From a virus (lineage: Duplodnaviria > Heunggongvirae > Uroviricota > Caudoviricetes), in IMG/VR virus record IMGVR_UViG_3300031857_000056, positions 38,590 to 102,589 of that record: a stretch of 64,000 bases of DNA, one strand, 5' to 3'. The position numbers were made by a program, and so were the translations under genes. Positions 24,737 to 63,500 of the stretch are shown piece by piece; within the stretch, counting starts at the first letter, position 1, and the number at the start of each line of letters is the position of its first letter. Below the pieces are notes generated by a model that searched no databases, was not told the DNA's origin, and worked only from the letters and a program-made list of their open reading frames with translations.

Positions 24737-24765
24737 ATATTACCACGGTGCAATAAAAAAGTCAA
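24737..24765 (-). promoter_or_regulatory. sigma70-like promoter (TTGACT-17-TAATAT) for the ligase gene
   Basis: The -35 lies inside the terminator stem. About 10 nt separate the -10 from the ATG. Confidence 0.45.
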
Positions 24766-24787
24766 GGAGATTTTCATCGTCCTTGAC
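24761..24787 (-). terminator. intrinsic terminator hairpin (gtcaagga/tccttgac) plus T-run
   Basis: 8-bp stem and 11-nt loop, followed on the minus strand by TTTTTT. Lies downstream of 24799..25980. Confidence 0.55.
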
Positions 24788-24798
24788 TTTGGTGTGGT

Positions 24799-25980
24799 TT
24801 AAGCAGAAACCGTGTTGATTTTTGTTTTATACTTATAAACTGCGGTTACGTTTTCGTCTGTCATTACCTTTGACTTGACCAAACCATTGGAAAGCAATTC
24901 ATATCGCTTTTGACACTTTGGTGTTTCTCGTCCACGAAGCAATGCTGCATATGTCATTTTTTTGTCACCAACCTTATGATCAGCTTCTGGATTCTTCTTT
25001 AGAAGAGCGTTGATTTCCACAAACTTATACATAAACGTCTTTACATCCTTGATCTGATTGCGATGACGGTGATAAAACACGAACAAATCAAATACAGTTT
25101 GCTTACTTAGCTTCATACCGTCCTTGAATACATCTTCATTTGGAGCGACCCACGTATTGAAGAAGTTGTCTACATCATTTTTAAAAAGAGATGACTTGCT
25201 GTTTAGCTCAGATCCATCTTCGTATTCACTGCGAAGAATGCCATCACTAATATTCTTCTTGAATCCAAAACTATGAAAGAATGCCATACCAGCAAATTGC
25301 GAGTCAATCTTACGACGGTTATAATCTTGTTCTGAAAAGATCGAAAGAATCCAACTACGTGTAGTGAAATCCCGATAATATCTTTCGCCAAATTCACGAC
25401 AAATCTTTGAAATTGGACTAATAATAGCATTACGCTTTTCAGCCGCGTTCAATTCACATCCACTATTTACAGCGATGAAAATATCACTCAATTGTGAACG
25501 AGTTGCATTGGTATATACTTGAACTGTGATGGTACGAGTTAGAATGAAATCTTTAACTGATTCACTCAGATCCGCCCATCGTTGGTCACGCTTGATGGTA
25601 AACTTATTGTCCAGTTCATCTGAATATGTTCCAGCACGCAATTCAAGTTGATTTGTAAACAACAAACGCAACGTAGTAAAACGGTTGTTACTATCCAAAT
25701 TGAGATAGTTAGCTCCCTTGGAAAGCCAACCAGAGTAATAGTTGATATCTTCTGCCAACATTGCACTCTTTCTACATTCAGGAACGTCAGCAAAAATAAA
25801 CTTGCTTGGAGCAATTCCCTTAAGCAAATTGTGGAGATAACTGCGTGACTTTGTTGCATCCCAACGAGCGGGACTCTGAAAACTATCGTCGATAAACACA
25901 CTATCGAGAAACTTCTTTGCATTAGAAAGTTCCCAGTTTTCGGTTGTGGACTTAACCATCTTTTGATTGTTATTAATCAT
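24799..25980 (-). CDS. hypothetical protein
   Basis: 393-aa ATG ORF. No motif recognised with confidence. Confidence 0.45.
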   Translation of the reverse strand: MINNNQKMVKSTTENWELSNAKKFLDSVFIDDSFQSPARWDATKSRSYLHNLLKGIAPSKFIFADVPECRKSAMLAEDINYYSGWLSKGANYLNLDSNNRFTTLRLLFTNQLELRAGTYSDELDNKFTIKRDQRWADLSESVKDFILTRTITVQVYTNATRSQLSDIFIAVNSGCELNAAEKRNAIISPISKICREFGERYYRDFTTRSWILSIFSEQDYNRRKIDSQFAGMAFFHSFGFKKNISDGILRSEYEDGSELNSKSSLFKNDVDNFFNTWVAPNEDVFKDGMKLSKQTVFDLFVFYHRHRNQIKDVKTFMYKFVEINALLKKNPEADHKVGDKKMTYAALLRGRETPKCQKRYELLSNGLVKSKVMTDENVTAVYKYKTKINTVSA

Positions 25981-26113
25981 ATTACTTTTTATTTTTTATA
26001 CTGGAATTTTTGGTTATGACATAATTGTCTAATTAATAATTTTTATCTCAGACAGCGTAATTGCTTTTTGGATTCAAATTATCAGTCGTGAACCAGTTAC
26101 TCACAACAAAATC

Positions 26114-26142
26114 ATCTTATCAGTTGTTTCTTTAAAAGTCAA
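26114..26142 (-). promoter_or_regulatory. sigma70-like promoter (TTGACT-17-TAAGAT), about 130 nt upstream of 25980
   Basis: Matches the family consensus but is distant from the ATG. Confidence 0.3.
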
Positions 26143-26653
26143 GCGGAACATTGAGCGTTTTCCAAAACTTTTCGTTGAGAATTTTTATAGGTACTTCGTT
26201 TTTTAGCTCAAAATTAGGATGTTCATACACATAATCGAGCAAAGTTTTTGCTGAAATGTAAAACAACACAATTTTATCACTACACAATTTGGTGCAAAAA
26301 TACCCACCATTGTTAAGAACTTCAGCTTTATCTTCCCAAATCAATTTTTTCAAATTGCCCGATGTATGTCCCAGATAAATTGTGTTTGTTGGAGATACAC
26401 GACGAATGTCTACACGAACAGTGGGGTCATTTGTCAATTCAAAATCCCACTTACTATTTGCTGGACTCTTTTTGATATTGGTATATTCGCTTTTGGTGGT
26501 CAAATAATCCAATATCATTCGTTCAATTAGTTCACCACATCCGCCTATTTTAACTTGATTGTAAACATAATCGTTGATCATCTTATAGCGTTTTAATTCT
26601 TTAAGATAAATTTCACCCATATTATATACTTCAGATTTGAATTCAATATTCAT
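26132..26653 (-). CDS. hypothetical protein
   Basis: ORF of 173 aa. Confidence 0.4.
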   Translation of the reverse strand: MNIEFKSEVYNMGEIYLKELKRYKMINDYVYNQVKIGGCGELIERMILDYLTTKSEYTNIKKSPANSKWDFELTNDPTVRVDIRRVSPTNTIYLGHTSGNLKKLIWEDKAEVLNNGGYFCTKLCSDKIVLFYISAKTLLDYVYEHPNFELKNEVPIKILNEKFWKTLNVPLDF

Positions 26654-26655
26654 TT

Positions 26656-27054
26656 TTAATTTTTTACAATTTCACCCTTAGCATCACTATACCACACTTC
26701 ACCCACATTAAATTGCTTGACCACACTTTGACAACCACAACACGGCTTGCTGTTGTTCAACTTACCCGTTCGATCCACTCTAAGTACAACCATTTTAAAA
26801 TCACTCAGATTCTCACGACCACTCTTCATACACACACTCAACTCAGCGTGAAGTCCAACAAGCTGATGGTTTTTATAATCATATTCCAAAGTCTTGGGAT
26901 GACTCTTACAGCTGTTTGTACCAATATGTACAATTTTACCACATCGAATCAAAAAAGCTATATGACTACACCTATGCTCAATGTTGAGCGGACACATAGC
27001 CTTAGCAATGTCAATGGTACGCTTCAGAATCTTGCTGTTCATTACTAAACTCAT
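26656..27054 (-). CDS. CDA-fold (cytidine/deoxycytidylate deaminase-like) zinc deaminase
   Basis: 'GLHAELSV' (H-A-E) and 'PCCGCQ' (PCxxC) zinc-binding motifs. Track start at 27081 is TTG; the ATG is at 27054 or 27042. Confidence 0.5.
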   Translation of the reverse strand: MSLVMNSKILKRTIDIAKAMCPLNIEHRCSHIAFLIRCGKIVHIGTNSCKSHPKTLEYDYKNHQLVGLHAELSVCMKSGRENLSDFKMVVLRVDRTGKLNNSKPCCGCQSVVKQFNVGEVWYSDAKGEIVKN

Positions 27055-27132
27055 ACTACCATCGACTTTATAAAAAATCAACTACATTTTTTATATTTTG
27101 AAATTTTGAGGTAGTTGTGATATGATATATTT

Positions 27133-27840
27133 ATGGAAAACCTTTATGTTGAAAAAATACACAATTCGATTGCCAAAGAATTGATTGTTAAACATCATTA
27201 TACACACAAGTGGACCATAGCCGAGTTGTGTATCGGAATTTACGACAAAAGCAAACGTAGTGTATTTTTTGACGTTCCTACGCTGGTTGGCGCAGTTGTA
27301 TTTGGACCCACTGCTGGCGCAAATGTGGCTAGAAGTGTGTCTCCACTATTAAATCATTCCAATTTATGGGAATTGAAACGATTGTGGGTAGCAGATGAAT
27401 TGGGTAAAAATACTGAAAGTTGGGTTATTGGTCAATGTTTGAAATATATCAAACAACATCACAGTGAAATAAAGTGTTTGATCAGTTATGCTGATCCTGA
27501 TGCTGGACACATTGGTACCATATATCAAGCTACCAATTGGCTGTATCAAGATATTGAAAGACGCAAAGGCACTAGTGGTTATATTGTTAGTTTTGACGGT
27601 GGTATTAAATGGCAACACTCACGTACATTATTCAACAAATATGGAACATTCAACTATAATAAATTGGTGGAAGTGTTACCCAGACCATTTAAGATCAAAG
27701 AATTATCAGTTAAAGAACGATATATTTATCCTTTGGGAAGCAAAGTGGAAAAGAAAAATCTGATTAAAAGTTTGAATTATCCCATTATAGAATATCCCAA
27801 ACTCAAATCAGATAAAGAAACTGTAGTGGAATTTAATTAA
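27133..27840 (+). CDS. Mom-like GNAT-fold DNA modification acyltransferase (putative)
   Basis: Pattern 'AKELIVKHHYTH......G.Y........LVGAVVFG....ANVAR' then 'LKRLWV...' then 'LISYADPDAGHIGTIYQATNW' parallels phage Mu Mom (KHHRH...AVAGRPVAR...ITYT..GASLRASGF). Recalled from memory. Confidence 0.4.
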   Translation: MENLYVEKIHNSIAKELIVKHHYTHKWTIAELCIGIYDKSKRSVFFDVPTLVGAVVFGPTAGANVARSVSPLLNHSNLWELKRLWVADELGKNTESWVIGQCLKYIKQHHSEIKCLISYADPDAGHIGTIYQATNWLYQDIERRKGTSGYIVSFDGGIKWQHSRTLFNKYGTFNYNKLVEVLPRPFKIKELSVKERYIYPLGSKVEKKNLIKSLNYPIIEYPKLKSDKETVVEFN

Positions 27841-28681
27841 TAATCTTCAACTGAATGTTGCCAAGTGTAAGATTTTGCACAATAACATTGTTTGCACTCA
27901 AAAACTCATACTTGCTTTCAACTCGCTTTACTTTACGATTACCCTTTTTGCTCTTACGATACACAATAACACCACCACTATAACTGTTGATAATCATCTG
28001 CGCAACAGTCTTACGCCATTCATAAGCTGAAAAATTACCAACAGTATCAATCAAAATATTACCAGCCACATTGTTCTTAAAATTGTCGTTGGTTTTGATC
28101 ATAGTCAACAAGGTATCAAACAATTCAAAATCAGAGCTTGAAAATTCAGTGACCTTTTTACGAAAATATTGATTAAAATATTTGGTAATATCACTATCAA
28201 CAAAATAGGTATTCAAAATTTTATCACAAAAAGATCGAATTGTAACAAGCTCATTGTACTTGTCAGTAACATTGCCACGGGTTTTGATAGCAAAATCAAT
28301 GATGCCACTTTCTTTCTTCAATTCATAAGACTTATCACCCAACGTAACATCTCCAGTCTCACCACGCTTGATGATGCTCTTTCTTGAATTGGCAATCATC
28401 AAAAATACAGACAACTCACCACGACCAGTCTGATGCTTGATGTTTTCAGGTGACGCAAGCACATTGTCAATTTTATGTGCATCACTATTAACATCATTCA
28501 CCTCTTTGAGAAATGTGTCTACGTTGTCAAATTGCGGAATGCTGTTGATACCAATATTGGTCAAAGACGCAACCAAAGTGTCAATTTTGGATTGATGTGA
28601 TTGAGTCTTGAGCTTGTCAAGACCATTTTTGATTTGATCGCTAAAAAAAGTGGTAGAATTGGTGCTCATTACAAGAACCAA
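27833..28681 (-). CDS. hypothetical protein (possible PD-(D/E)xK-like core)
   Basis: 'GDVTLGDKSYELKKE' resembles a D..ExK core. Weak. Confidence 0.4.
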   Translation of the reverse strand: MVLVMSTNSTTFFSDQIKNGLDKLKTQSHQSKIDTLVASLTNIGINSIPQFDNVDTFLKEVNDVNSDAHKIDNVLASPENIKHQTGRGELSVFLMIANSRKSIIKRGETGDVTLGDKSYELKKESGIIDFAIKTRGNVTDKYNELVTIRSFCDKILNTYFVDSDITKYFNQYFRKKVTEFSSSDFELFDTLLTMIKTNDNFKNNVAGNILIDTVGNFSAYEWRKTVAQMIINSYSGGVIVYRKSKKGNRKVKRVESKYEFLSANNVIVQNLTLGNIQLKIIN

Positions 28682-28711
28682 TCTACCACACTTTTTTCAA
28701 ATGTCAACAGC

Positions 28712-31118: not shown

Positions 31119-31436
31119 TTAATAAGAGTCAAACTCAACATCAAGTGAATTGAAATTGATAGTAGACGGATCTACATCCAAATCAATACCACCATCAACA
31201 ACAAAAACCTTCAAATCCTTCTTAATCTCGGTAGAAGGTCCACCACTACAGCTACAACCAGAGCTATAACACCAAGTGACGTTACCATCCTTGTCTACAC
31301 CAACACCCTCATAAGAGTGATGACCATAACCCCAATTCTCATTCTCAATCTCCTTGAAAATGACAACGATATCATCATCAAACTTGCTCTTAGGAAGAGC
31401 GTCCCAATTCTGTACAATGTAATCTACGATATTCAT
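31119..31436 (-). CDS. hypothetical protein
   Basis: ORF of 105 aa. Confidence 0.35.
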   Translation of the reverse strand: MNIVDYIVQNWDALPKSKFDDDIVVIFKEIENENWGYGHHSYEGVGVDKDGNVTWCYSSGCSCSGGPSTEIKKDLKVFVVDGGIDLDVDPSTINFNSLDVEFDSY

Positions 31437-31526
31437 TACTCATCTAAGTTACCACGGAGTTTATACAAAGTCAACAAAAAACCCGCAGAATTTCTTCAAC
31501 GGGTCACCAATGTTACTTGTTATTTT

Positions 31527-32432: not shown

Positions 32433-32673
32433 TTTCTTTATTTTCTGACTTGATGTTCTTGACCAACTTGGTCACATCACTTTTTAAGATTATCAGCGAC
32501 CCGATAAAAAGTCCAGCGAAAAGTGCGGTTCCAACAAGATTTGCAACGTCACTCTTTTGATTAATTAAATTAGTGGATTGATTAAACAAACAAGCGCCCA
32601 CTGTAAGTACAACAAAATACTTTGCACAATACTTTACAATATTTTTATTACTAAACATAAATTTTTCATTCAT
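32425..32673 (-). CDS. small membrane protein
   Basis: Two hydrophobic segments. Overlap-coupled to the SPFH gene. Confidence 0.35.
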   Translation of the reverse strand: MNEKFMFSNKNIVKYCAKYFVVLTVGACLFNQSTNLINQKSDVANLVGTALFAGLFIGSLIILKSDVTKLVKNIKSENKENE

Positions 32674-32728
32674 ATCAAATAGACTATACTACAAAAAAGA
32701 GGAACTGTCAAGTCCCTCTTAAATGTTT

Positions 32729-33373: not shown

Positions 33374-33824
33374 AAATCATTACATCAATTCCTTCATTAA
33401 AGGATGGATCTTCATATTTTGATAGCATCCTATCAATAATATTTGTAGGCACAACTCTACCACCTTGTTCTCCTCGTTTCTTGTTTCTTTCAATTAATCC
33501 TTGACGATCCATCTTGAAAACAATAGCAACTACTTTTGCACCATATTTCTTTGCAGTCTTAATATAGTCACTACGTTCCTTACGGTTTACACTGGTTGCG
33601 TCAACCAATACATTTTTACCATCTTTTAGAAATTCGTCAACCTTTCTTTTGATGTGACCGAAAACAAGTGGGGTAACAGTTTGATCTTCTTCACTTTTAC
33701 CATATACAGCACGTAGTGAATCACTACTTAGATATTCAATATCTTTGTCTTTAATAAAGTTTTTTGCATATGTGGATTTACCACTTCCAGGCAATCCAAC
33801 CGCAATATAAAGTGTATTATTCAT
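33366..33824 (-). CDS. pnk: polynucleotide 5'-kinase (T4 Pnk kinase-domain-like)
   Basis: 'GLPGSGKSTYA' P-loop, 'DATSVNRKER', 'NKKRG...VP..IIDRM'. Collinear with the T4 Pnk kinase domain. Confidence 0.6.
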   Translation of the reverse strand: MNNTLYIAVGLPGSGKSTYAKNFIKDKDIEYLSSDSLRAVYGKSEEDQTVTPLVFGHIKRKVDEFLKDGKNVLVDATSVNRKERSDYIKTAKKYGAKVVAIVFKMDRQGLIERNKKRGEQGGRVVPTNIIDRMLSKYEDPSFNEGIDVMIYV

Positions 33825-33830
33825 ATGTAC

Positions 33831-33858
33831 ATCTTAACTCAACTTGTTATAAAGTCAA
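33831..33858 (-). promoter_or_regulatory. sigma70-like promoter TTGACT-16-TAAGAT, 6 nt from the ATG
   Basis: Read on the minus strand: TTGACTTTATAACAAGTTGAGTTAAGATGTACATATG. Confidence 0.5.
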
Positions 33859-34352: not shown

Positions 34353-35426
34353 TTACGGTGTTTGTATAGCATTGAGTAATGCTCTTGCTACAACACGATC
34401 TTTTTCTTTTTCTTCTTCAGGAAGTGAAGAATAATTTACATTTGACAATTTTCTTCTTTGTTCAATTTTAGCGTCCAATTTACCATTATCTCTCAACTTT
34501 TGAGTATCACTGAATTGGTCTGGGTTTGCCACAAACTTTTTAGCAGTTTCATTCCAACCACTATGAATTGCATCCGAAATCTTTTCTATGTCAGTTACAC
34601 CCGCGTCAATTACTCTTTTGGCAAATTCCGCTGATTTTAAATTGGCTTGCCATCCAAATGTATTACCCGGAGTGCTTCTACCATAATGATAAGCATTATC
34701 CAATGCTTCATCACTAACGGTTGCCAAATCTTCTATTGACATATTTTCATTCAACTTCTTGTGTAGAAGTTTAAGATGCTTTTGAAATGTTTCGTTTAAA
34801 ATATTCTGGTTCATATGATTATAAGTATCTTCGGTTATATGTAATTGTTTTAAAAAAAAGTCAACAATTTCTTTTATTATAGGTGCTAATCCTTTCGTGG
34901 AAAACATAATATCAGATTCTTTTTCAACGTCATCAAAATCTAAATCATAACTTCCAAGCTTTAAACCATTAGTAATGATATCACGTATACTTTTAAGTGC
35001 AGCTCCATCACCACTCAATCCTTTTTTATACAATATCAACTTTGCAACTTTCATTAATAAACCAATTGTAATTGTATAATATATCGTAATAGCAATATGT
35101 TTTAATTCAGATTCATCTTTTGTTTTTAGTTTTGGTATTTTTTTCAATACAAACACCAATCCATTAATATATGATGTAGCCCATTTATCAATATTATCTA
35201 TTGCAATTTGAATTTTTGGTAACATAGTTTTTGTTACAAAATTTGCAGTCTTCGATTTGTTAGAATCAGCAAACAAATTTTTAGGCATAATTAATGCAAT
35301 TAAATTTTTTACTATATTAAGAAATGCAGCAGATATTACTGGTAAGGTAAGCAGCAATGTCACAATTGATACTACATCTCCAATTCCTTCTACATATAGT
35401 TTTTTCTTATTTACATTTTTAGCCAT
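34353..35426 (-). CDS. membrane-anchored hypothetical protein (C-terminal half paralogous to 35506..36165)
   Basis: N-terminal transmembrane segment 'VVSIVTLLLTLPVISAAFL'. Internal 'LNETFQKHLKLLHKKLNENMS' parallels the N-terminus of the next gene. Confidence 0.45.
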   Translation of the reverse strand: MAKNVNKKKLYVEGIGDVVSIVTLLLTLPVISAAFLNIVKNLIALIMPKNLFADSNKSKTANFVTKTMLPKIQIAIDNIDKWATSYINGLVFVLKKIPKLKTKDESELKHIAITIYYTITIGLLMKVAKLILYKKGLSGDGAALKSIRDIITNGLKLGSYDLDFDDVEKESDIMFSTKGLAPIIKEIVDFFLKQLHITEDTYNHMNQNILNETFQKHLKLLHKKLNENMSIEDLATVSDEALDNAYHYGRSTPGNTFGWQANLKSAEFAKRVIDAGVTDIEKISDAIHSGWNETAKKFVANPDQFSDTQKLRDNGKLDAKIEQRRKLSNVNYSSLPEEEKEKDRVVARALLNAIQTP

Positions 35427-35450
35427 ATTGATATAAATATATCTACAAAA

Positions 35451-35484
35451 AAATAAACCCCACTAAATTAATAGTGGGGTTTTT
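35451..35484. repeat. terminator-containing element, copy 2
   Basis: 'aaataaaccccactaaattaatagtggggttttt'. Confidence 0.6.
35458..35479 (-). terminator. intrinsic terminator hairpin
   Basis: Stem ccccacta/tagtgggg, flanked by A7 and T5. Confidence 0.55.
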
Positions 35485-35505: not shown

Positions 35506-36165
35506 TTAAACTAATACAGCGTCATATAACTGGTTTGAATTGGCTGCTTTTATTCGTAGTTCCACTTTGCCAGCACTTCGAATTACATCAATTACCACGG
35601 CACCCATTAAACCATCTGGTTCATTACCTTCATTAGTTACTTCATCAACTGGTCTTTTTAATCCGCCGGCTGTATAGAGTATATCTAATAATTGTTTAAA
35701 GTTTTCGTCACTCCAATTTGGAAAGTTGCTTCTAACATCAGGATCCCCGCCTCCTTGACTCATACTTACAAAATCTCTAGCGGACATTTGCAAAGATGAT
35801 GAACCTTTACCAAAATGTTTTATATATTGATTAGCAGTGTTTTTTACTTTTTCATCTGAAACACCACTGCCTTTTTTAACAATTTTTACAAACTCATTTC
35901 CTTTCAATTCAAAACCACTTTCTTTGAATGCATCCACCAATTCATTAAATGCATCCGTACCTTTTTCAATATCTAAATCATTCAAAACGGTATCAACTTC
36001 AAATGAAGAGGTATAACCACTACTATTTTGATCTAACCAAAAGGCTAGTTTAGCATCTATAGTGTCGTCGTCAGGCTCAAATAATCCTTCATTCAACTGA
36101 AGTTTTTTATTTAGAAGACCCAAATGTTTTTTAAATGTTTCGTTAAGTAAATTGCTCATATACAA
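35506..36165 (-). CDS. hypothetical protein (paralog of the C-terminal part of 34353..35426)
   Basis: 'LNETFKKHLGLLNKKLQLNEG' N-terminus. Confidence 0.45.
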   Translation of the reverse strand: MYMSNLLNETFKKHLGLLNKKLQLNEGLFEPDDDTIDAKLAFWLDQNSSGYTSSFEVDTVLNDLDIEKGTDAFNELVDAFKESGFELKGNEFVKIVKKGSGVSDEKVKNTANQYIKHFGKGSSSLQMSARDFVSMSQGGGDPDVRSNFPNWSDENFKQLLDILYTAGGLKRPVDEVTNEGNEPDGLMGAVVIDVIRSAGKVELRIKAANSNQLYDAVLV

Positions 36166-36180
36166 TAAATATATACAAAA

Positions 36181-36216: not shown

Positions 36217-37308
36217 TTAGTTCTTTAAGACTTGGAACATCAACTTCTTATATTCTTCCTTACCTAATGGACGATTATCCAAGAGTTTAAATACAAAAGC
36301 AGCTCTGTTTGTTTCACCATAAGATGAAATAACCAGTTGTGCTTGTTCTTTTCTGGTAGGCAATGAACGAAGTCTGTTATTCACAAAACTATTCATACCA
36401 TCCACAATCTTGTTTACTTCCTTCTTACCATCCGCAATACGGCTAATAGTACCTTTAATTTGTTCTGCTAACTCGAAATCAAAGGTGGTAAAGATATAGT
36501 TATAAAAAGTGTTGTAGTCAGGCATACCCTGTTCCAACCACACATCCATAATTTTTTCCAGTGAACTAAGTTCAGACTTTAGATGATGTAACAGGAGATA
36601 TTTAGATGCTTTAATCTTATGAATAGTCTGATCATTCTTACTATATAAGCATACGCCTTCTTTATCTTGCCACTTATCTACAATCTGTAACATATCAGTT
36701 ATATCAGTAAAAGTATAGATTTCCGGACGAAGTAAATCATACTTCTTAGCCATAGCATCCAACATATCTTGTTGTGCAAGTGAATAGTTGATATGATTAA
36801 TAAAACCAATCAACTTCCACATAGGTTCATCGCCATACGATAACACAATTTTATTGATTGGAGACAGCCATTCCCAAATGATAGAATAACCCCAAGTATC
36901 ATTGTTATCCTGTAACTTACTTAGAATAGTTGACTTGAACAATTCTAACTCAAAACCATTAGCCATAGTAGAAGCATCAACAGTTCCACGGGTTCGTAGA
37001 ATATATTGACCCTTATACTTGCTAACAATCAAAGTGCTACCGTCCAACTTTTCAACAACAGTGCAATGCTTCAATGAAGCAGGAACAGGAAAGTGTTCAG
37101 GATTCTCCCCATAGTTAGTAAACTTCGGAAATGATGCACTAATAACTTCACCCTCATAATTCACAACCACACTACGCATGTGCTTGTTGTCTTGCGTCCA
37201 CTTAGTGCCAATATTTTGGGGTTGAATCAAATGGACAATTTCACCGAAAGCGTGGAAATGGTGCACCATAAATTGAGTGCGGTCAACCTTATCTATGTCA
37301 ATTTTCAT
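36217..37308 (-). CDS. rnlA: RNA ligase 1 (T4 RnlA-like, tRNA repair)
   Basis: 'VVEKLDGSTL' KxDG, 'FPKFTNYGENPEHF' (compare T4 'KFFNLNENP'), 'EGVCLYSKNDQTIHKIKASKY' motif IV/V pattern. Confidence 0.65.
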   Translation of the reverse strand: MKIDIDKVDRTQFMVHHFHAFGEIVHLIQPQNIGTKWTQDNKHMRSVVVNYEGEVISASFPKFTNYGENPEHFPVPASLKHCTVVEKLDGSTLIVSKYKGQYILRTRGTVDASTMANGFELELFKSTILSKLQDNNDTWGYSIIWEWLSPINKIVLSYGDEPMWKLIGFINHINYSLAQQDMLDAMAKKYDLLRPEIYTFTDITDMLQIVDKWQDKEGVCLYSKNDQTIHKIKASKYLLLHHLKSELSSLEKIMDVWLEQGMPDYNTFYNYIFTTFDFELAEQIKGTISRIADGKKEVNKIVDGMNSFVNNRLRSLPTRKEQAQLVISSYGETNRAAFVFKLLDNRPLGKEEYKKLMFQVLKN

Positions 37309-37314
37309 AGATTT

Positions 37315-37343
37315 ATCTTACAACAGATTTTAAAGAAAGTCAA
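37315..37343 (-). promoter_or_regulatory. sigma70-like promoter TTGACT-17-TAAGAT, 6 nt from the ATG
   Basis: TTGACTTTCTTTAAAATCTGTTGTAAGATAAATCTATG. Confidence 0.5.
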
Positions 37344-37672: not shown

Positions 37673-37678
37673 ACAACT

Positions 37679-37707
37679 ACATTACTACACAGTTTAGAAT
37701 AAGTCAA
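37679..37707 (-). promoter_or_regulatory. sigma70-like promoter TTGACT-17-TAATGT, 6 nt from the ATG
   Basis: TTGACTTATTCTAAACTGTGTAGTAATGTAGTTGTATG. Confidence 0.45.
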
Positions 37708-38634: not shown

Positions 38635-38643
38635 AACTTTATA

Positions 38644-40786: not shown

Positions 40787-40792
40787 ATTACA

Positions 40793-50034: not shown

Positions 50035-50074
50035 ATAATATACTATATCATAGTATGGATACTAAATCAATATT

Positions 50075-50392: not shown

Positions 50393-50426
50393 AATAACTC
50401 AAAGATAACATATATCGAATACAATG

Positions 50427-51452: not shown

Positions 51453-52159
51453 AATTTGATTAGTTTTATGTCACCTTCTAATGTCTCAATTATATACGAT
51501 GTATTTTCTCCAACAATAAAACTACCACAATTGTAATAGTTTATACCATCAATAATGGTACATTCTGGTTTGTGTATATGACCGCATAAAATACTATCGT
51601 GTCCACTATTTTTACAATAGTGTACAACGGTAGCTTCATAATTGCCTATGTACTTAACTGCTTCTTTTGCTTTTTGTTTGAGAAAGTTACTGAAGCTAAA
51701 TTTGAATATTCTAAATAGTTTATTTACCGACAAACTATAATCGTATATTACTGAACCAATATGTTGTATCCACTTATTTTTGGTTACTAATCCATCAAAT
51801 TGATCTCCGTGAATAATTAATATTCTTTCGTTTTTTAATGTGGTATGAGTGATTTCTCTTACAACTTGTATATTATCGCCAAAGTATATGTCATTGAATG
51901 GTTCGATAAAGTCATCGTGGTTACCCCAAATATAATATACTTTGGTTCCTTTACGACTCATACGCAATATTTTTTGCAATATTGTGTTATAATTGCTATG
52001 CCACTTAAACTTTCTACTCAATAACCAACCATCAATAAAATCACCTACAATATACAAATATTCACATTCAACTTCACTTAATAGTTTCAATAATTTTTCG
52101 TGGTTACAAAAATCACTACCTATATGACAATCACTTATAAATAATGTGCGTACTTTCAT
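51449..52159 (-). CDS. metallophosphoesterase, LpxH-like
   Basis: 'LFISDCHIG', 'YIVGDFIDGW', 'WGNHDDF', 'GHIH'. Confidence 0.55.
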   Translation of the reverse strand: MKVRTLFISDCHIGSDFCNHEKLLKLLSEVECEYLYIVGDFIDGWLLSRKFKWHSNYNTILQKILRMSRKGTKVYYIWGNHDDFIEPFNDIYFGDNIQVVREITHTTLKNERILIIHGDQFDGLVTKNKWIQHIGSVIYDYSLSVNKLFRIFKFSFSNFLKQKAKEAVKYIGNYEATVVHYCKNSGHDSILCGHIHKPECTIIDGINYYNCGSFIVGENTSYIIETLEGDIKLIKL

Positions 52160-52190
52160 TATTTATAAATATTCATACACTTGTTACAGA

Positions 52191-54204: not shown

Positions 54205-54542
54205 GTTCTATGTTCTTCCGCAATATATTCTCCCCCACCTTGTTCACGGTTGTCAATATACCATTTGATACCATCTGGTATTTCGACTACTTTAAGTTTG
54301 CAACGTTTTCCGTGACTTGATTTTTCACCCAGAGTTTCTACAACTTTTACAAGATCTGGGTCACTTCTGTCGAATGTCCATTCATCAATTATATTTTCTT
54401 CACTTTCTTCATTTTTATAGAAATCCCTATAAACATCATTTCCATCTTTAATTAGATTATAACCTTTAAATTTAGCGTATAAAGCATGAGCTTCATCACT
54501 TAATCTAAAAGCTCCATAGCTTGAGTTGATAACCACTTTCAT
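54195..54542 (-). CDS. hypothetical protein
   Basis: ORF of 115 aa with a 'VEIPDGIKWYIDNREQGGGEYIAEEHRTW' C-terminal motif. Confidence 0.4.
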   Translation of the reverse strand: MKVVINSSYGAFRLSDEAHALYAKFKGYNLIKDGNDVYRDFYKNEESEENIIDEWTFDRSDPDLVKVVETLGEKSSHGKRCKLKVVEIPDGIKWYIDNREQGGGEYIAEEHRTWR

Positions 54543-54548
54543 AGTCTT

Positions 54549-54577
54549 ACTTTACCACGGGTTTTTATGAAAGTCAA
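54549..54577 (-). promoter_or_regulatory. sigma70-like promoter TTGACT-17-[TGG]TAAAGT, 6 nt from the ATG
   Basis: TTGACTTTCATAAAAACCCGTGGTAAAGTAAGACTATG. Confidence 0.5.
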
Positions 54578-55826: not shown

Positions 55827-56129
55827 TTAATGGGCTTTACCATTAGGATTGCATTTACCACACGGATTATAATATCCGTCATAAGTGACATAATATTTAT
55901 TTCCTTCACAAATGTTGCATTCTTCAGATTTGTTTTCTGCTTTAGCGTCTTCCAAATCTTTTAAATATTTTTCTGATAATTCTGTGATATACTTGAGTTC
56001 ATCTATATCGAACACTCCGTTTAATTCTATGCATTTATTATTAATAAAAACATTAATAGTAACACATCTACTTGATCCAAGTTTTTGGTAAATTTCTTTA
56101 TAAAATTTATTTTTTATATCAGCAGTCAT
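55827..56129 (-). CDS. Cys-rich small protein
   Basis: 'CNICEGNKYYVTYDGYYNPCGKCNPNGKAH'. Confidence 0.4.
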   Translation of the reverse strand: MTADIKNKFYKEIYQKLGSSRCVTINVFINNKCIELNGVFDIDELKYITELSEKYLKDLEDAKAENKSEECNICEGNKYYVTYDGYYNPCGKCNPNGKAH

Positions 56130-56135
56130 AAGTTT

Positions 56136-56164
56136 ACTTTACCACGGGTATTTCTGAAAGTCAA
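56136..56164 (-). promoter_or_regulatory. sigma70-like promoter TTGACT-17-[TGG]TAAAGT, 6 nt from the ATG
   Basis: TTGACTTTCAGAAATACCCGTGGTAAAGTAAACTTATG. Confidence 0.5.
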
Positions 56165-56934: not shown

Positions 56935-57336
56935 TTATTTTAATAGTTCACTATGTTCAAAAATATTACCAACAATGACGGACTCAAATGCTACATCACA
57001 ATTTAGATTTTTATAATTTTGGTTTGGTCCTTTTCGTTCCCATTGAAAGATATAACCGCCTTCATCAGCTTCATATAATACTTGTCCTATTACACCTGTT
57101 GTAGGTATAGAACCAGACTTATAAATTAGAATATCACCCTCGTAAATTTCTTTATCGTTGTTATCAGTTAAGCCAGTGTATTGTTGGATTACATAATCAT
57201 CGCCACCGCTACCATTTTGTAGATTATGGAAGCGTCCATTTAAATCAATGATAAAGTGTTGTTGATTGTCATTATGAGGATAAATCATGCGTTTTGCCAA
57301 TTTATCCCACACTCTAAATTTAAATCTGTTATTCAT
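56935..57336 (-). CDS. YopX-family protein, paralog 5
   Basis: 'KFRVWDK...QQYTGLTDNNDKEIYEGDIL'. Confidence 0.55.
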   Translation of the reverse strand: MNNRFKFRVWDKLAKRMIYPHNDNQQHFIIDLNGRFHNLQNGSGGDDYVIQQYTGLTDNNDKEIYEGDILIYKSGSIPTTGVIGQVLYEADEGGYIFQWERKGPNQNYKNLNCDVAFESVIVGNIFEHSELLK

Positions 57337-57339
57337 ATT

Positions 57340-57368
57340 ACTTTACCACACACTTTATAACAAGTCAA
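57340..57368 (-). promoter_or_regulatory. sigma70-like promoter TTGACT-17-[TGG]TAAAGT, only 3 nt from the annotated ATG
   Basis: TTGACTTGTTATAAAGTGTGTGGTAAAGTAATATG. Confidence 0.4.
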
Positions 57369-57557: not shown

Positions 57558-57754
57558 TTTCTACAATCATTATTGCGGATCTGATCAGTAACCTCAAGCC
57601 AATTATTCATATGGTTGACCATAAATTGAGTCATTTGAGGGTTTTGTTCAAAGATGGGGTTCCATACCCAATGAAACAACCGATAAACCATCCAGTGATA
57701 CCAACGAATCTCCATAGTTTTGCAATGTTTGGCTTCAAGCTTTGTGTATTTCAT
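57554..57754 (-). CDS. hypothetical protein
   Basis: ORF of 66 aa. Has a promoter plus a short leader containing GAAAGAG. Confidence 0.35.
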   Translation of the reverse strand: MKYTKLEAKHCKTMEIRWYHWMVYRLFHWVWNPIFEQNPQMTQFMVNHMNNWLEVTDQIRNNDCRK

Positions 57755-57769
57755 TTAATTTACTCTTTC

Positions 57770-57797
57770 AGTTTACCAGCTTTTTTCAGAAAGTCAA
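57770..57797 (-). promoter_or_regulatory. sigma70-like promoter TTGACT-16-TAAACT with a 15-nt leader
   Basis: TTGACTTTCTGAAAAAAGCTGGTAAACTGAAAGAGTAAATTAAATG. Confidence 0.4.
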
Positions 57798-57846: not shown

Positions 57847-57875
57847 AGATTACCACACACTTTATAACAAGTCAA
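57847..57875 (-). promoter_or_regulatory. sigma70-like promoter TTGACT-17-[TGG]TAATCT
   Basis: Overlaps the 3' end of the upstream gene. Would transcribe a possible 19-codon mini-ORF at about 57800..57862. Confidence 0.35.
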
Positions 57876-60028: not shown

Positions 60029-60268
60029 TTAACTCCAGTCACCAATCAAACGAATTCCCTTGACAATAGTTGAATCTTTCTTTTTGGGTTCCTCTCCCTT
60101 TTCTAATATTTCGTGTTTGCCATAATACCACTCAGTATTGACATTCAATTCAACATCACACAATTCATACTTATCCATTTCATCAACACCACCTTCATAA
60201 CCAGCAACCACAACCATCAATTCAGAATCCAGTTGTGACAATGTTTCAATCAATTCTTTAACTTTCAT
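60029..60268 (-). CDS. hypothetical protein
   Basis: ORF of 79 aa. Confidence 0.3.
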   Translation of the reverse strand: MKVKELIETLSQLDSELMVVVAGYEGGVDEMDKYELCDVELNVNTEWYYGKHEILEKGEEPKKKDSTIVKGIRLIGDWS

Positions 60269-60469
60269 AACAATAGTTTACCACGCAAATTCACCCCTGT
60301 CAACCTTTTTTTACCTGACAAGTGTCAAGTGTCTTGTAGTAGGTCCGTAGTTCAGCATCAAAAAACAACCACATAATAAATCTACGAAAATAACTTTGTT
60401 TACGATAAACGCTTACTTCAATATCATTATCTGGAAAATACCACGCAAATCTTTCTATAATTTGATACT

Positions 60470-61025: not shown

Positions 61026-61384
61026 AAAACTAAATTTTCATTTAAACATTCATTGATTTGTTCAGTGGTCTTAGTATGTTTAACTTTCAAAAACATTATT
61101 GAGCACTGAAAATTCCACCATTCAATGCCAATTGACACACTACCAGAACTTCTTCCAAGAGATTCAATACTAGAAAGAACACCTTGATGCCACCTCAGAA
61201 TATACAATGATGGAATAGGATAAACCTTCTCCTTATTCATATGTTTATATCCAAAACAACTAATACTATACTCAGTTTCATAGTTAGGATGTCCATTTGT
61301 ACATATCCACATCAATTTGCCCAATGATAATGTCGGGGAAAACTTACCTCTTGAATTGAAAAACTTAAATTTCATATTGTTCAT
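61022..61384 (-). CDS. hypothetical protein
   Basis: ORF of 120 aa. Confidence 0.4.
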   Translation of the reverse strand: MNNMKFKFFNSRGKFSPTLSLGKLMWICTNGHPNYETEYSISCFGYKHMNKEKVYPIPSLYILRWHQGVLSSIESLGRSSGSVSIGIEWWNFQCSIMFLKVKHTKTTEQINECLNENLVL

Positions 61385-61399
61385 TTTTATTACTCCACC

Positions 61400-61429
61400 A
61401 CTTTACCACGGGAAATTAAAGAAAGTCAA
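61400..61429 (-). promoter_or_regulatory. sigma70-like promoter TTGACT-18-[TGG]TAAAGT with a 15-nt leader containing GGTGGAG
   Basis: TTGACTTTCTTTAATTTCCCGTGGTAAAGTGGTGGAGTAATAAAAATG. Confidence 0.45.
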
Positions 61430-62013
61430 TCATTATTTTTTACAAAATCCCACTTGTCAGCATCATTCATTCTTGCACTAATACCATCACACAAATGCAA
61501 CAACCACGCAGCTTTAGTCTTTGGCATCACCGGACTACCCCACTCACGCTGTCCGTGATGTGACAAAATGTTGTGGGTAACACTATCAGCATACTTACCA
61601 TATTTTAAACTATGTGTAGCTACAGCACTATTCCATACCAATGCACTACGACTAATATGATGAATAGTTCTTTTGTGTTCTGTGCCAAACCATACATTGT
61701 ATGACTTATCCACTGGCTCATAATCCCACATTTTGCCACAATCGTGAAATAATGCACTCAAATACAATTCAATCGGGTCAATATCTATGATGTTACAAAA
61801 TGTTGTGGATTTCAATAAATTAAAATTAGCAAAACACAACCCAACCACTTCACAAGTATGTTGTATCAAACCACCTTTACCATAGTGATGTTGATGTTTT
61901 TTGCTACTACCACTCCACAACTCAAATCGTGGGTCATCAATTACCACAGAAGCAATATCATATACACCCAAATTATTTGCTCGGTCAATCAAATGTTGTT
62001 TATAATCATTCAT
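61426..62013 (-). CDS. HD-domain phosphohydrolase
   Basis: 'H..E', 'ALFHDCGK' (HD), 'HH', 'LSHHGQREWGSP', 'D' in 'LCDGIS'. Confidence 0.5.
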   Translation of the reverse strand: MNDYKQHLIDRANNLGVYDIASVVIDDPRFELWSGSSKKHQHHYGKGGLIQHTCEVVGLCFANFNLLKSTTFCNIIDIDPIELYLSALFHDCGKMWDYEPVDKSYNVWFGTEHKRTIHHISRSALVWNSAVATHSLKYGKYADSVTHNILSHHGQREWGSPVMPKTKAAWLLHLCDGISARMNDADKWDFVKNND

Positions 62014-62019
62014 AATCTT

Positions 62020-62047
62020 ACTTTACCACAGAAATTCCTAAAGTCAA
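62020..62047 (-). promoter_or_regulatory. sigma70-like promoter TTGACT-16-[TGG]TAAAGT, 6 nt from the ATG
   Basis: TTGACTTTAGGAATTTCTGTGGTAAAGTAAGATTATG. Confidence 0.5.
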
Positions 62048-62213: not shown

Positions 62214-62555
62214 TCATACATATTTCTTTTTATACAATACTAACAATATCAGATTACTTTCCACCGTGGTATAATACATTTTTGATTTATATACATCGTC
62301 AGCAATAGGCATATTAACTTTAAACTCTCTAAGCCACGGGTCAAACATTATTCCTGTGCCAATGTCTTTTTCATAAGCATAATAATATCCATCATAGCCA
62401 GCTAGCAATTTATGATGTGAGTATTTCCACTTAGTATTTAAAATAGGATACTTAGCATCTATCTCTCTACCGCTCATAAAGTGAGATTCAAAGCATCCTT
62501 TCCATAAGTTGGTCTGACTTACACACGGAACATCTTTAGCAGCGGTAATATTCAT
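62214..62555 (-). CDS. hypothetical protein
   Basis: ORF of 113 aa. Confidence 0.4.
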   Translation of the reverse strand: MNITAAKDVPCVSQTNLWKGCFESHFMSGREIDAKYPILNTKWKYSHHKLLAGYDGYYYAYEKDIGTGIMFDPWLREFKVNMPIADDVYKSKMYYTTVESNLILLVLYKKKYV

Positions 62556-62561
62556 AAAAAC

Positions 62562-62744
62562 TTATTCAGTTTTCTTTTCAATCTTCTCCGTCAACTCTCG
62601 TATCATATCAATCGCACCAATTAAAATTACATCAGTACCACTTAAACTACAATCACTAACCAGTTCAATTCCACGCCTTTGCGCTTCTAATGCATATTCA
62701 CGCCAAGGTCCATTTGGTAAGTCTGTAATTTTAATAGAGCTCAC
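62562..62744 (-). CDS. hypothetical protein
   Basis: ORF of 60 aa. Confidence 0.3.
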   Translation of the reverse strand: MSSIKITDLPNGPWREYALEAQRRGIELVSDCSLSGTDVILIGAIDMIRELTEKIEKKTE

Positions 62745-63037
62745 AAAAATTTATAGCTATATACACTATTCTGTGTTTTAAAATACTTATCACCCACCTC
62801 AGTCACTCTGGATGTAGTAAACACACCACGCACCTCTACACCATTACGCTTGGTTCTATCAATAAACACATTCTTACCCACTTCAATTTCATATAGTAGA
62901 TAACCCTCCAAATTGTATTCAATCGGAATGCTACTATAGTTATCATTAGGTTTACCCATAATATGTTCATCCATACTTCTAGCGGGTAACCCTCCCGTCA
63001 CTTCTGCCAACTTCTCAATATAAATCTGTTTGTTCAT
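62741..63037 (-). CDS. hypothetical protein
   Basis: ORF of 98 aa. Confidence 0.35.
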   Translation of the reverse strand: MNKQIYIEKLAEVTGGLPARSMDEHIMGKPNDNYSSIPIEYNLEGYLLYEIEVGKNVFIDRTKRNGVEVRGVFTTSRVTEVGDKYFKTQNSVYSYKFL

Positions 63038-63040
63038 ATA

Positions 63041-63427
63041 TTATCTAATTGTAGTTCCGTCACTCGTAGTAACATTAGTTTTAGCATTAAGCTTATCAAG
63101 TGCTTGTTGTACAGATGAACGCCACTTGTTATTGTCTTTGATAGTCTCCATATCATCTGAAATAAAATTAATACCATTAGATGATGGTACATTGGCAGTA
63201 CTAATCCCGCCGCCTCCATCCATCACTGGATTATCAGTACGATGTATAGTGACAAAAGGCACATTTCCACAATATGTGTTTGGAAGTGGATTAGTAGGCC
63301 AATTTGGATTGGTTGCACTAATATTTAGTGCTTGACGACACTGTTCATACAAAGCTGTTACTTCTTGTTCAGTTAGAAAATATGCAGCGTCTTTGATTGT
63401 TAGTTTAAAAGTCTTTTCAATAGTCAT
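63041..63427 (-). CDS. hypothetical protein
   Basis: Track start at 63463 is TTG and overlaps the promoter -35. The ATG is at 63427 (MTIEKTF), 7 nt after the -10. Confidence 0.4.
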   Translation of the reverse strand: MTIEKTFKLTIKDAAYFLTEQEVTALYEQCRQALNISATNPNWPTNPLPNTYCGNVPFVTIHRTDNPVMDGGGGISTANVPSSNGINFISDDMETIKDNNKWRSSVQQALDKLNAKTNVTTSDGTTIR

Positions 63428-63434
63428 ATAATTT

Positions 63435-63463
63435 ATATTAACCGTTACCCCAAACAAAGTCAA
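63435..63463 (-). promoter_or_regulatory. sigma70-like promoter TTGACT-17-TAATAT, 7 nt from the ATG
   Basis: TTGACTTTGTTTGGGGTAACGGTTAATATAAATTATATG. Divergent from the plus-strand promoter. Confidence 0.45.
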
Positions 63464-63471
63464 GTACTTTC

Positions 63472-63500
63472 TTGATTTGTATCTTTGTTCGTGGTATATT
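63472..63500 (+). promoter_or_regulatory. sigma70-like promoter TTGATT-17-[TGG]TATATT, 8 nt from the ATG
   Basis: TTGATTTGTATCTTTGTTCGTGGTATATTTATAAGATATG. Confidence 0.45.

Follow-up and report, generated by a model that had tools for sequence, protein, structure and literature searches.

Results

A predicted promoter family abutting start codons in the minus-strand block

The DNA analysed here, referred to as the window, is a stretch of 64,000 nucleotides (nt) with a G+C content of 34% from the IMG/VR virus record IMGVR_UViG_3300031857_000056 (Caudoviricetes). From 1 to 21.4 kb, its plus strand encodes tail-fibre and baseplate-wedge-type proteins, including Laminin-G and collagen-like domains and several paralogue arrays. 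From 21.4 to 63.5 kb, nearly all genes, approximately 90 and most of them small, lie on the minus strand. This minus-strand block includes genes for an ATP-dependent DNA ligase, two RNA ligases, a kinase-like protein, a metallophosphoesterase, and thymidylate synthase as well as a glycosyltransferase, YopX paralogues, an SPFH protein, and Gad2-like and Mom-like proteins. The window is the tail-fibre and early-gene portion of a large uncultured freshwater phage, with a layout reminiscent of the hyperplastic early region in large myoviruses. Our subject is a family of predicted sigma-70-type promoters that recurs throughout the minus-strand block and lies, in most cases, within a few nt of an ATG start codon (Table 1).

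The block contains approximately 24 elements of the form TTGAC(T/A)-N16-18-(TGG)TAnnnT. An original prediction, made by reading the window, had described a near-consensus TTGACT...TAnnnT family here, and our counts bear this out: TTGACT-N15-18-TANNNT is found 19 times compared with 5.97 ± 2.62 in dinucleotide shuffles (maximum 14), and 17 of the 19 matches are on the minus strand. The motif is also enriched when an ATG is included in the pattern: TTGAC-N17-19-TANNNT-N5-8-ATG has 13 matches against 1.37 ± 1.17 expected, no shuffle got to 13, all 13 are on the minus strand, and 12 of them are at the start of a called open reading frame (ORF). A loose generic sigma-70 scan was not enriched (120 matches vs 119 expected; 92 vs 92.5); the signal is therefore a specific near-consensus family and not AT-richness. 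A repeat finder independently recovered the promoters as the direct-repeat families D2, D3, D5, and D8.

The curated set comprises 23 minus-strand sites and one plus-strand site (27098) before the inverted Mom-like gene; two more sites (57875 and 26142) have no adjoining gene. The gap between the -10 hexamer and the ATG at the 23 minus-strand sites is 6 nt in eleven, 7 nt in three, 9 nt in four, 10 nt in two, 3 nt in one, and 15 nt in two, and 21 of them are 3–10 nt from a gene ATG. The claim that the -10 ends exactly 6 nt before the ATG in at least 11 cases is thus matched by the tabulated eleven, and all nine coordinates given as examples are correct (33831, 37315, 37679, 40793, 42193, 44516, 54549, 56136, and 62020), with a weaker -35 at two of them (TTGACA at 40793 and TTGTGT at 44516). 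The -35 is TTGACT, TTGACA, or TTGACC at 19 of the 24 tabulated sites. The extended -10 with TGG and the spacer ends CCCGTGG and GTGTGG were found as described, and the start codon is ATG at all promoter-adjacent genes.

Twenty of the 87 minus-strand genes were scored as promoter-adjacent. Three more promoter-preceded starts (61384, 57754, and 39707), two of them with 15-nt leaders, are absent from the gene call. Promoter-adjacent genes have the T(-1)/A(+1) context in 90% of cases vs 69% of other genes, and genes without a promoter show no TANNNT peak at 6 nt. At nine of 25 promoters, the TGA stop codon of the preceding gene is part of the -35 hexamer TTGACT, which creates a recurrent 31-nt intergenic module. 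In addition, several terminators lead straight into promoters, and packing is extreme.

We also note that the 19-codon ORF following the promoter at 57875 (MEKFKKSFDFLKKAGKLKE) overlaps the next promoter, at 57797; the region 57770-57875 might represent a micro-ORF, two promoters in tandem, or what is left of a deleted cassette. Three long plus-strand ORFs (39351-40208, 60591-61109, and 57611-57847) overlap small minus-strand genes with promoters of their own (e.g., 39495-39707) and are probably spurious; longest-ORF calling masks real promoter-adjacent genes underneath them.

Table 1 Promoter-like elements, terminator, and RNA-repair-type genes in the window
Element	Gap to ATG	Positions	Strand	Gene and remarks
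TTGACT-N17-TAATAT	7 nt	63425..63463	-	gene 63041-63427
TTGACT-N16-(TGG)TAAAGT	6 nt	62011..62047	-	HD-domain gene 61426-62013; upstream TGA stop within -35
TTGACT-N18-(TGG)TAAAGT	15 nt (ggtggagtaataaaa)	61382..61429	-	gene 61022-61384; leadered exception; upstream stop within -35
TTGACA-N17-(TGG)TAAACT	6 nt	60266..60303	-	gene 60029-60268; upstream stop within -35
TTGACT-N17-(TGG)TAATCT		57847..57875	-	no long ORF adjoining; 19-codon ORF begins 27 nt downstream
TTGACT-N16-(TGG)TAAACT	15 nt (gaaagagtaaattaa)	57752..57797	-	gene 57554-57754
TTGACT-N17-(TGG)TAAAGT	only 3 nt	57334..57368	-	YopX gene 56935-57336
TTGACT-N17-(CCCGTGG)TAAAGT	6 nt	56127..56164	-	gene 55827-56129; upstream stop within -35
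TTGACT-N17-(CCCGTGG)TAAAGT	6 nt	54540..54577	-	gene 54195-54542; upstream stop within -35
TTGACA-N17-TATCTT	9 nt	50390..50430	-	gene 50075-50392; upstream stop within -35
TTGATT-N17-(TGA)TATAGT (weaker)	7 nt	50032..50070	-	gene 49645-50034
TTGACC-N17-TATACT	7 nt	46417..46455	-	thymidylate synthase gene 45268-46419
TTGTGT-N17-TATTAT (weak -35)	6 nt	44507..44544	-	gene 44366-44509
TTGACT-N17-(TGT)TATACT	6 nt	42184..42221	-	metallophosphoesterase gene 41407-42186; kept in orthologous loci
TTGACA-N16-(TGA)TATAGT	6 nt	40784..40820	-	gene 40241-40786; terminator 40828-40849 directly upstream
TTGACA-N17-TAAAGT	6 nt	39705..39742	-	small gene 39495-39707
TTGACT-N17-(GTGTGG)TAATCT	9 nt (tataaagtt)	38632..38672	-	gene 38113-38634; upstream stop within -35
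TTGACT-N17-TAATGT	6 nt	37670..37707	-	gene 37340-37672; upstream stop within -35
TTGACT-N17-TAAGAT	6 nt	37306..37343	-	Rnl1-like RNA ligase gene 36217-37308; upstream stop within -35
TTGACT-N16-TAAGAT	6 nt	33822..33858	-	kinase-like gene 33366-33824
TTGACA-N17-TATAGT	9 nt	32671..32711	-	gene 32425-32673; -35 inside terminator hairpin 32697-32720
TTGACT-N17-(CCGTGG)TAACTT	9 nt	31434..31474	-	gene 31119-31436; T-run just upstream
TTGACA-N16-(TGG)TAGATT	10 nt	28667..28707	-	gene 27833-28669
TTGACT-N17-(CCGTGG)TAATAT	10 nt (tatataagat)	24724..24765	-	ATP-dependent DNA ligase gene 23629-24726
TTGAAA-N17-(TGA)TATGAT	6 nt	27098..27135	+	Mom-like gene 27133-27840, inverted within minus-strand block
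TATATATA	5 nt	882..897	+	late gene 895-1119
TGTATATA (1 mismatch)	5 nt	3800..3815	+	late gene for an 816-amino-acid protein
TAGTTATA (1 mismatch)	6 nt	12723..12739	+	tail-fibre paralogue 12737-13915
TATTTATA	7 nt	16103..16120	+	tail-fibre paralogue 16118-17359
TATTTATA	5 nt	35424..35439	-	gene 34353-35426, right after terminator 35455-35482
TATTTATT (1 mismatch)	4 nt	36157..36171	-	gene 35506-36159, right after terminator 36182-36215
TTTTTATA (1 mismatch)	4 nt	41321..41335	-	gene 41126-41323, after terminator 41355-41390
TATTTATA	4 nt	52157..52171	-	gene 51449-52159; 31-nt intergenic gap without TTGAC element
TATTTATA	4 nt	63497..63511	+	LigT-like gene starting 63509, runs out of window
Bidirectional intrinsic terminator		35455..35482		one of three near-identical copies; others 34308-34333 and 36182-36215
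RNA-repair-type genes		30092-31141, 33366-33824, 36217-37308, 41407-42186, 52926-53300

Conservation of the promoter–ATG distance in related phages

The comparative evidence is the strongest result of this work. In related loci, drawn from IMG/VR, JGI, and ENA and belonging to relatives 41–98% identical for two query proteins, we counted 200 distinct TTGAC-N16-18-TANNNT contexts. The ATG of an ORF with 40 codons or more follows at exactly 6 nt in 78 of the 200, at 5–8 nt in 93, and at 9 nt in 16; five controls with a scrambled -35 gave at most one match each. For the Rnl1-like RNA ligase gene, 76 metagenomic contigs yielded 40 distinct upstream sequences, 38 of which carry the promoter. The gap is 6 nt in all 38, while the spacer measures 16 nt in 24 of them and 17 nt in the other 14, and at least 12 versions of the 6-mer separate the -10 from the ATG. 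A gap that is fixed while the spacer varies implies that the spacer can absorb indels, whereas the interval from the -10 to the ATG cannot. Phosphoesterase orthologues follow the same pattern, with one clade at 5 nt.

The canonical distance between the -10 and +1 is a 6-nt discriminator, and RNA polymerase favours a pyrimidine/purine start context, as given by T(-1) followed by the A of ATG. Of the 51 distinct 6-mers, 46 have a pyrimidine at position -1, and in 40 this pyrimidine is T. Because a 6-nt discriminator would put +1 on the A of the ATG, the arrangement has the geometry that defines bacterial leaderless genes, and the proposed transcription start on this A is strongly supported by the geometry together with the relatives.

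The family consensus, TTGAC(T/A)-TTttAaAA...-TGG-TA(a/t)(a/t)nT, has a textbook -35 and an extended -10. The -35 is TTGACT or TTGACA at 106 of 112 sites; the spacer is 16 nt at 54, 17 nt at 53, and 18 nt at five; and the three positions before the -10 hexamer are T at 85, G at 90, and G at 72 of the 112. The start codons are supported by tblastn matches that begin at residue 1–4 in relatives. Related late and tail-fibre loci had no such promoter within 3–10 nt of a start; the arrangement is therefore specific to the early gene block. In some relatives, the RNA ligase gene is an internal cistron without a promoter and has other upstream neighbours, and the promoter subtype is swapped at an RNA ligase orthologue (locus L035; two variants among the 40).

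Translation signals, operon structure, and terminators

The original prediction had noted that no Shine-Dalgarno (SD) sequences precede the promoter-adjacent genes. SD-like motifs are indeed at background in the upstream regions of all 118 called genes (GGAG 3 vs 3.0 in control windows; AGGA 6 vs 4.4). Across the called genes, upstream regions are A-rich and G-poor, T occupies -1 in 73% and A occupies +4 in 75%, at internal cistrons and first ones alike, and 97% of genes start with ATG. The first 35 nt of coding sequence have a mean folding energy of -1.3 kcal/mol vs -3.3 kcal/mol for internal coding sequence. That SD is lacking throughout, at internal cistrons as well, supports the claim that the host must be capable of SD-independent initiation.

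Among the 87 minus-strand genes, 50 begin no more than 10 nt from the stop codon before them, including 15 with an ATGA overlap. Only first cistrons can be leaderless. The description of the early regulon as essentially leaderless can therefore apply only to first cistrons (approximately 20–23 of the 87 minus-strand genes) and is overstated for the regulon as a whole given the 50 internal cistrons. The two 15-nt gaps (61382-61429 and 57752-57797) begin with purine-rich GGTGGAG and GAAAGAG, respectively, about 8 nt before the ATG. With a start 7 nt after the -10, most of the motif would be missing from the mRNA, and it would be SD-like only where read-through transcripts carry it.

Terminator-like sites number 17 vs 8.5 ± 3.0 expected in 24–44 kb. 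An upstream stem-loop is directly adjacent to the promoters at 40820 and 32711 and a T-run precedes the one at 31474; most sites have neither. In the two fused cases, the -35 TTGACA at 32711 is within the hairpin (32697-32720), and the T-run of the terminator at 40828-40849 merges into the -35 at 40820. The three terminator copies AAACCCCACTAAATTAnTAGTGGGGTTT (repeat family D7) are at 34299-34340, 35447-35488, and 36177-36218. Read along the minus strand, two of the copies lead straight into a T-run, then TGTAnATATATTTAT, and then the ATG of gene 35426 or 36159. These two genes look like insulated units with a -35-less promoter within the early block.

A candidate second element before late genes

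Late plus-strand genes had been proposed to be leaderless too, with TATA-like sequences such as 'TTATA(A)GTTAT' beside the ATG. In this form, the claim fails. The TANNNT gap profile of plus-strand genes is flat, without a 6-nt peak, and most plus-strand gaps are 3–20 nt; TATA[AG] within 16 nt of the ATG is present at nine of 23 genes vs 4.9 ± 1.9 expected, a count that includes three paralogue copies. The proposed sequence exists, and it becomes significant only when recast as TAT(A/T)TATA, a candidate 8-mer that emerged when late-gene upstream regions of the family were screened for k-mers. Exact copies cluster 3–7 nt before the ATG (mode 4–5 nt) at nine different late genes. With at most one mismatch, TAT(A/T)TATA is 3–7 nt before the ATG at 24 of 87 late genes (approximately 28%) vs 27 of 240 control genes, namely early-block genes without a sigma-70-type promoter (Fisher p = 8e-4). 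In the window, TATTTATA-N3-7-ATG is enriched (six matches vs 1.43 ± 1.2). What remains of the late leaderless claim is thus the subset of genes with this motif.

The motif precedes the late genes at 895, 2071, 2785, 3813, 6288, 12737, and 16118. Within the minus-strand block, it precedes the genes at 35426, 36159, and 41323, each right after a strong terminator, and it is also found before the gene at 52159 and the divergent genes at 44610 and 63509. As a side observation, C-terminal coding regions are duplicated together with the next upstream regions in the tail-fibre paralogues, which inflates motif counts before late genes.

T4 late promoters are read by gp55, gp33, and gp45. Like them, the candidate TAT(A/T)TATA element would be an 8-bp TATA-type box without a -35; it tends to be located before late structural genes, and its TATATATA form is one position off the T4 consensus TATAAATA, which was never found near a start in the sequences screened. 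Unlike T4 late transcripts, which have leaders with SD, the phage box is 3–7 nt from the ATG. Because the T4 late box spans -13 to -6 (PMC1524935), a 5-nt gap would again place +1 on the A of the ATG. We have moderate confidence, because the motif is AT-only, that this second element marks a subset of genes, plausibly the first cistrons of late units.

Comparator phages and the host

Six comparator phages were run through the same scripts. All six were rejected as models for the window phage. SD-like motifs were present in 42% (Pelagibacter phage HTVC008M), 38% (Caulobacter phage Cr30, which has T4-like TTTACT promoters), 34% (LR756511), 33% (Microcoleus phage My-WqHQDG), and 17% (Synechococcus phage S-CREM1) of upstream regions. 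S-CREM1 has the same TTGAC(A/T)-N17-TAnnnT early promoters with leaders of 11–40 nt. Tenacibaculum phage pT24, which has a Bacteroidota host, has SD-like motifs in 5% of upstream regions, together with TAtaTTTG boxes and A-rich leaders of 20–30 nt; its TATATTTG boxes lie 20–30 nt before genes. None of the six has promoters abutting starts. No comparator examined joins SD-less translation, classical -35/-10 recognition, and start-abutting promoters. Separately, the preference for T(-1) in the window exceeds that in every comparator examined (pT24 44%; S-CREM1 31%).

The pT24 pattern agrees with that reported for Flavobacterium johnsoniae, whose transcripts carry leaders that average 33 nt (PMC6847099). 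The window is similar to Bacteroidota in that SD is wholly absent, upstream regions are A-rich, and ATG is nearly exclusive (PMC6847099). However, F. johnsoniae and pT24 are leadered and use a TAnnTTTG -7 box, whereas TAnnTTTG in the window is at chance (107 matches vs 99.3 expected) and not linked to gene starts. For Bacteroidota as host, the translation signals fit and the promoters do not. The host must start translation without SD and presumably recognises classical -35/-10 promoters; cyanobacteria or another lineage with weak start signals fit best (PMC6028130).

Gene content and distribution of the lineage

The RNA-repair-type genes of the minus-strand block encode a PHA02142/Rnl-type RNA ligase, an Rnl1-like ligase, a kinase-like P-loop protein, a metallophosphoesterase, and a PTH2 peptidyl-tRNA hydrolase, and they are grouped. 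The Gad2-like (29100-29831) and Mom-like (27133-27840) genes are close to them, and a LigT-like gene extends from 63509 on. The RNA-repair-type genes and the LigT-like gene suggest a tRNA or RNA-damage counter-defence module. The window had no tRNAs and no Rfam matches. Two of the YopX-domain paralogues (52191-52592, 56604-57336) are in tandem and a third is 4 kb off; they share stretches of 60–100 nt with 72–88% identity (repeat families D1, D4, and D6). The tail-fibre paralogue arrays at 1376-3495 and 12737-18589 comprise three Laminin-G proteins of 227–236 amino acids and five proteins of 344–413 amino acids.

Among cultured phages, megablast and distant blastn matched only conserved thyA segments and found no close relative. 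Searches with six proteins by tblastn gave only 36–49% matches, spread over huge uncultured, alphaproteobacterial, cyanobacterial, and enterobacterial phages, and neither of two scans of 185,579 species genomes, one with an RNA-ligase alignment and the other with a fatty-acid hydroxylase, turned up a relative. The same or related sequence is present in many freshwater metagenomes, and there are related contigs as long as 115, 171 (IMG/VR 3300007171_000018), and 296 kb. The 115-kb contig, when walked, had only further tail-fibre, homing-endonuclease, and 2OG-oxygenase genes. The largest contig (L240; Ga0214923_10000007, 295,831 bp) is a family member with the same promoter–ATG architecture in the 13 kb of it that were seen. 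Because a family member sits on a 296-kb contig, the lineage may be a jumbo phage instead of one with a genome of approximately 170 kb.

One further contig (L079; NCBI JAVQID010233640.1, locus 7524-11767) is 99.9% identical to the window until the middle of a tail-fibre gene for a 1207-amino-acid protein and then becomes DNA of 41–43% G+C with ResB, SIS, DUF4954, NAGPA, and GHL10-type genes, none with SD. It is probably an assembly chimera; its bacterial part is Bacteroidota-like and at most a weak hint about the host.

Discussion

Altogether, our results support a model whereby the first cistrons of the minus-strand block are probably expressed as leaderless mRNAs from start-abutting promoters, with SD-independent coupled translation downstream. 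Directly observed are the motifs and the lack of SD, along with the enrichment of the motifs, their bias in strand and position, and their conservation; from these, we infer active promoters, exact transcription starts, the mode of translation, and early or late timing. In our model, the minus-strand block would be split into many short transcription units, each with a TTGAC(T/A)-N16/17-TGG-TAnnnT promoter of the kind read by a primary sigma-70-type holoenzyme. RNA polymerase would begin on the A of the ATG or 1–3 nt upstream of it, the -10 ending 6 nt before and less often 5–10 nt before, and the first cistron would be translated by direct recognition of the 5'-terminal AUG. Promoters of the 9–10-nt class would yield leaders of 2–4 nt, and the two 15-nt cases would be leadered exceptions. 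Downstream SD-less cistrons would rely on termination–reinitiation and on structure-dependent, SD-independent initiation. Where terminators are lacking, read-through from upstream units would also contribute, and both routes are probably at work; the scarcity of terminators in 44–64 kb implies that read-through must also put these genes inside longer mRNAs. Finally, TAT(A/T)TATA may fire on the ATG with T4-type late geometry at a subset of late genes and at a few terminator-insulated genes of the early block.

Several observations weigh against this model. At their 5' ends, promoter-adjacent genes are no less structured than other genes. Seven sites with gaps of 3, 9, or 10 nt would start within a codon or give a leader of 2–4 nt, and the two sites with 15-nt leaders carry the purine-rich GGTGGAG or GAAAGAG. 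Terminator-like sites in 44–64 kb number eight vs 7.1 expected, and when metagenome contigs were taken as a proxy for transcript ends, which is a weak one, 0 of 86 stretches began at the ATG. The gene calls come from a simple longest-ORF heuristic. Recognition by the host primary sigma factor is assumed, and pT24, the only clearly SD-less comparator, has TAnnTTTG promoters and leaders of 20–30 nt. As for the second motif, it is AT-only in an AT-rich genome and its TATATATA form alone is not enriched in the window.

The alternative that fares best accepts the promoters as real and holds that protein is made mostly from read-through polycistronic mRNAs, the spacing reflecting compaction and the leaderless route being minor. 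The A-rich -10 may then double as a non-SD translation enhancer approximately 9 nt upstream of starts, and an A-rich motif at about this distance is described for Bacteroidota (PMC6028130). This alternative draws on the chance level of terminator-like sites in 44–64 kb, on the RNA ligase gene being internal and promoter-less in some relatives, and on the fact that all genes, with a promoter or not, have A-rich and G-poor upstream regions, T(-1), and unstructured starts. However, compaction alone would not fix the gap at 6 nt in 38 of 38 RNA ligase variants while the spacer toggles between 16 and 17 nt, and neither the lack of a 6-nt TANNNT peak at non-promoter genes nor the higher frequency of T(-1)/A(+1) at promoter-adjacent ones (90% vs 69%) would be expected from it. 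We therefore regard it as unlikely.

Some jumbo phages encode their own polymerases, and the reader of the elements might be a sigma factor or polymerase that is encoded by the phage, delivered with the virion, or of an alternative type, in which case the likeness of the elements to sigma-70 promoters would say little about the host. The 296-kb related contig, which suggests a jumbo genome, and the different promoter type of pT24 as the one clearly SD-less comparator are compatible with this idea. Nevertheless, the -35, the 16–17-nt spacer, the TGn, and the TAnnnT jointly match the preferences of a group-1 sigma factor point for point, the early genes of cyanophage S-CREM1 have the same hexamers, and neither the window nor the flanks examined showed a polymerase or sigma gene, making such a reader quite improbable.

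We consider it more improbable still that the repeats serve chiefly in recombination, as modules by which small early genes are shuffled, with the spacing as a by-product of cassette boundaries. The PeSL (promoter-early stem-loop) cassettes of T4-type phages, described as a stem-loop, a sigma-70 promoter, an SD, and a start codon (PMC4122927), offer a precedent, near-identical promoter subfamilies recur in the window (D2, D3, D5, and D8), one RNA ligase orthologue has a different promoter subtype (L035; two variants), and some relatives are promoter-less with other upstream neighbours. Yet this explanation is compatible with promoter function, PeSLs themselves being working promoters, it leaves the strict 6-nt distance unexplained, and an adjacent stem-loop is present at only some sites. 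That the pattern is a functionless chance product of an AT-rich genome can be dismissed almost entirely: the loose sigma-70 scan does find as many sites in shuffled sequence, but the specific pattern is 3- to 9-fold enriched with no shuffle attaining the observed count, and it is strand-specific, tied to gene starts, and kept in relatives down to 41% protein identity.

Leaderless initiation is usually seen as a minority or lineage-specific mode, found in Actinobacteria, Deinococcus-Thermus, and archaea and at single phage genes such as lambda cI. In bacteria with leaderless genes, the Pribnow box is 6–8 nt from the gene start (PMC6028130; PMC3160421; PMC12340547). The leaderless genes of Actinobacteria and Deinococcus-Thermus (GeneMarkS-2 'group C') are similar to the arrangement in the window in having TANNNT 6–8 nt before the start, AUG, no SD, and a transcription start inferred on the start codon. 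They differ in that these genomes are mostly of high G+C, the -35 is weak or dispensable, and leadered and internal genes still have SD, whereas in the phage, the -35 is near-perfect, the -10 is extended, G+C is 34%, and no gene class has SD.

The middle and late transcripts of Thermus thermophilus phage phiYS40 are reported to be mostly leaderless, and the phage is thought to bias host translation to leaderless mRNA (PMC3594737). On that account, phiYS40 and the related P23-45 provide a parallel for a large lytic phage with a whole temporal class of leaderless transcripts. In phiYS40, however, the middle and late classes are leaderless, while here the sigma-70-type and presumed early class is the clearest, and the host phylum of phiYS40 is itself rich in leaderless genes; the window phage is not known to change initiation factors. 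At the lambda PRM-cI unit, a sigma-70 promoter also yields a transcript that begins at the AUG without SD (PMC10491246; PMC3160421); this is a single regulatory gene in an SD-using host, whereas here we find what would be a genome-wide design. In PeSL cassettes, as in the window, near-consensus sigma-70 early promoters recur in the spaces separating small and variable early ORFs, some promoters are fused to an upstream terminator stem-loop, and near-identical subfamilies exist. In contrast to PeSLs, which end in an SD and a leader, the phage elements lack both and have the ATG at the predicted +1; a stem-loop is present at a minority of phage sites, and stops within the -35 are not described for PeSLs. 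The parts are already known, namely -10-adjacent leaderless genes, lambda cI, phiYS40, and PeSL cassettes. New is the combination of near-consensus extended -10 promoters on the AUG across a presumed early block, the absence of SD, and stops in the -35, together with a possible second TATA-type class and conservation across a widespread uncultured freshwater lineage.

We speculate, as a possibility that we hold to be rather doubtful in this full form, that these cosmopolitan large freshwater phages fire both promoter classes, the sigma-70-type presumed early and the TATA-type presumed late, on the AUG, such that the genome is almost without 5' untranslated regions, wholly without SD, and has stops in the -35, with leaderless initiation and reinitiation as the main route of translation. 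If both classes do fire on the AUG, the phage might part its own mRNAs from leadered host mRNAs, e.g., via a shift in the balance of initiation factors, as proposed for phiYS40.

The architecture yields testable constraints on the host. If transcript mapping confirms our model, the family would provide dozens of natural modules, diverse in sequence, in which a promoter is paired with a leaderless start and with which transcription start choice and 70S-type initiation could be studied, as well as a design rule for compact expression cassettes, with the stop codon in the -35 and the AUG at +1. It would also point to an annotation risk, in that gene finders expecting an SD or a leader would mis-call starts in such phages. 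Judging from the orthologous upstream sequences, purifying selection on the distance between the -10 and the ATG is directly visible, and the early programme of this freshwater phage family appears to be organised around leaderless initiation.

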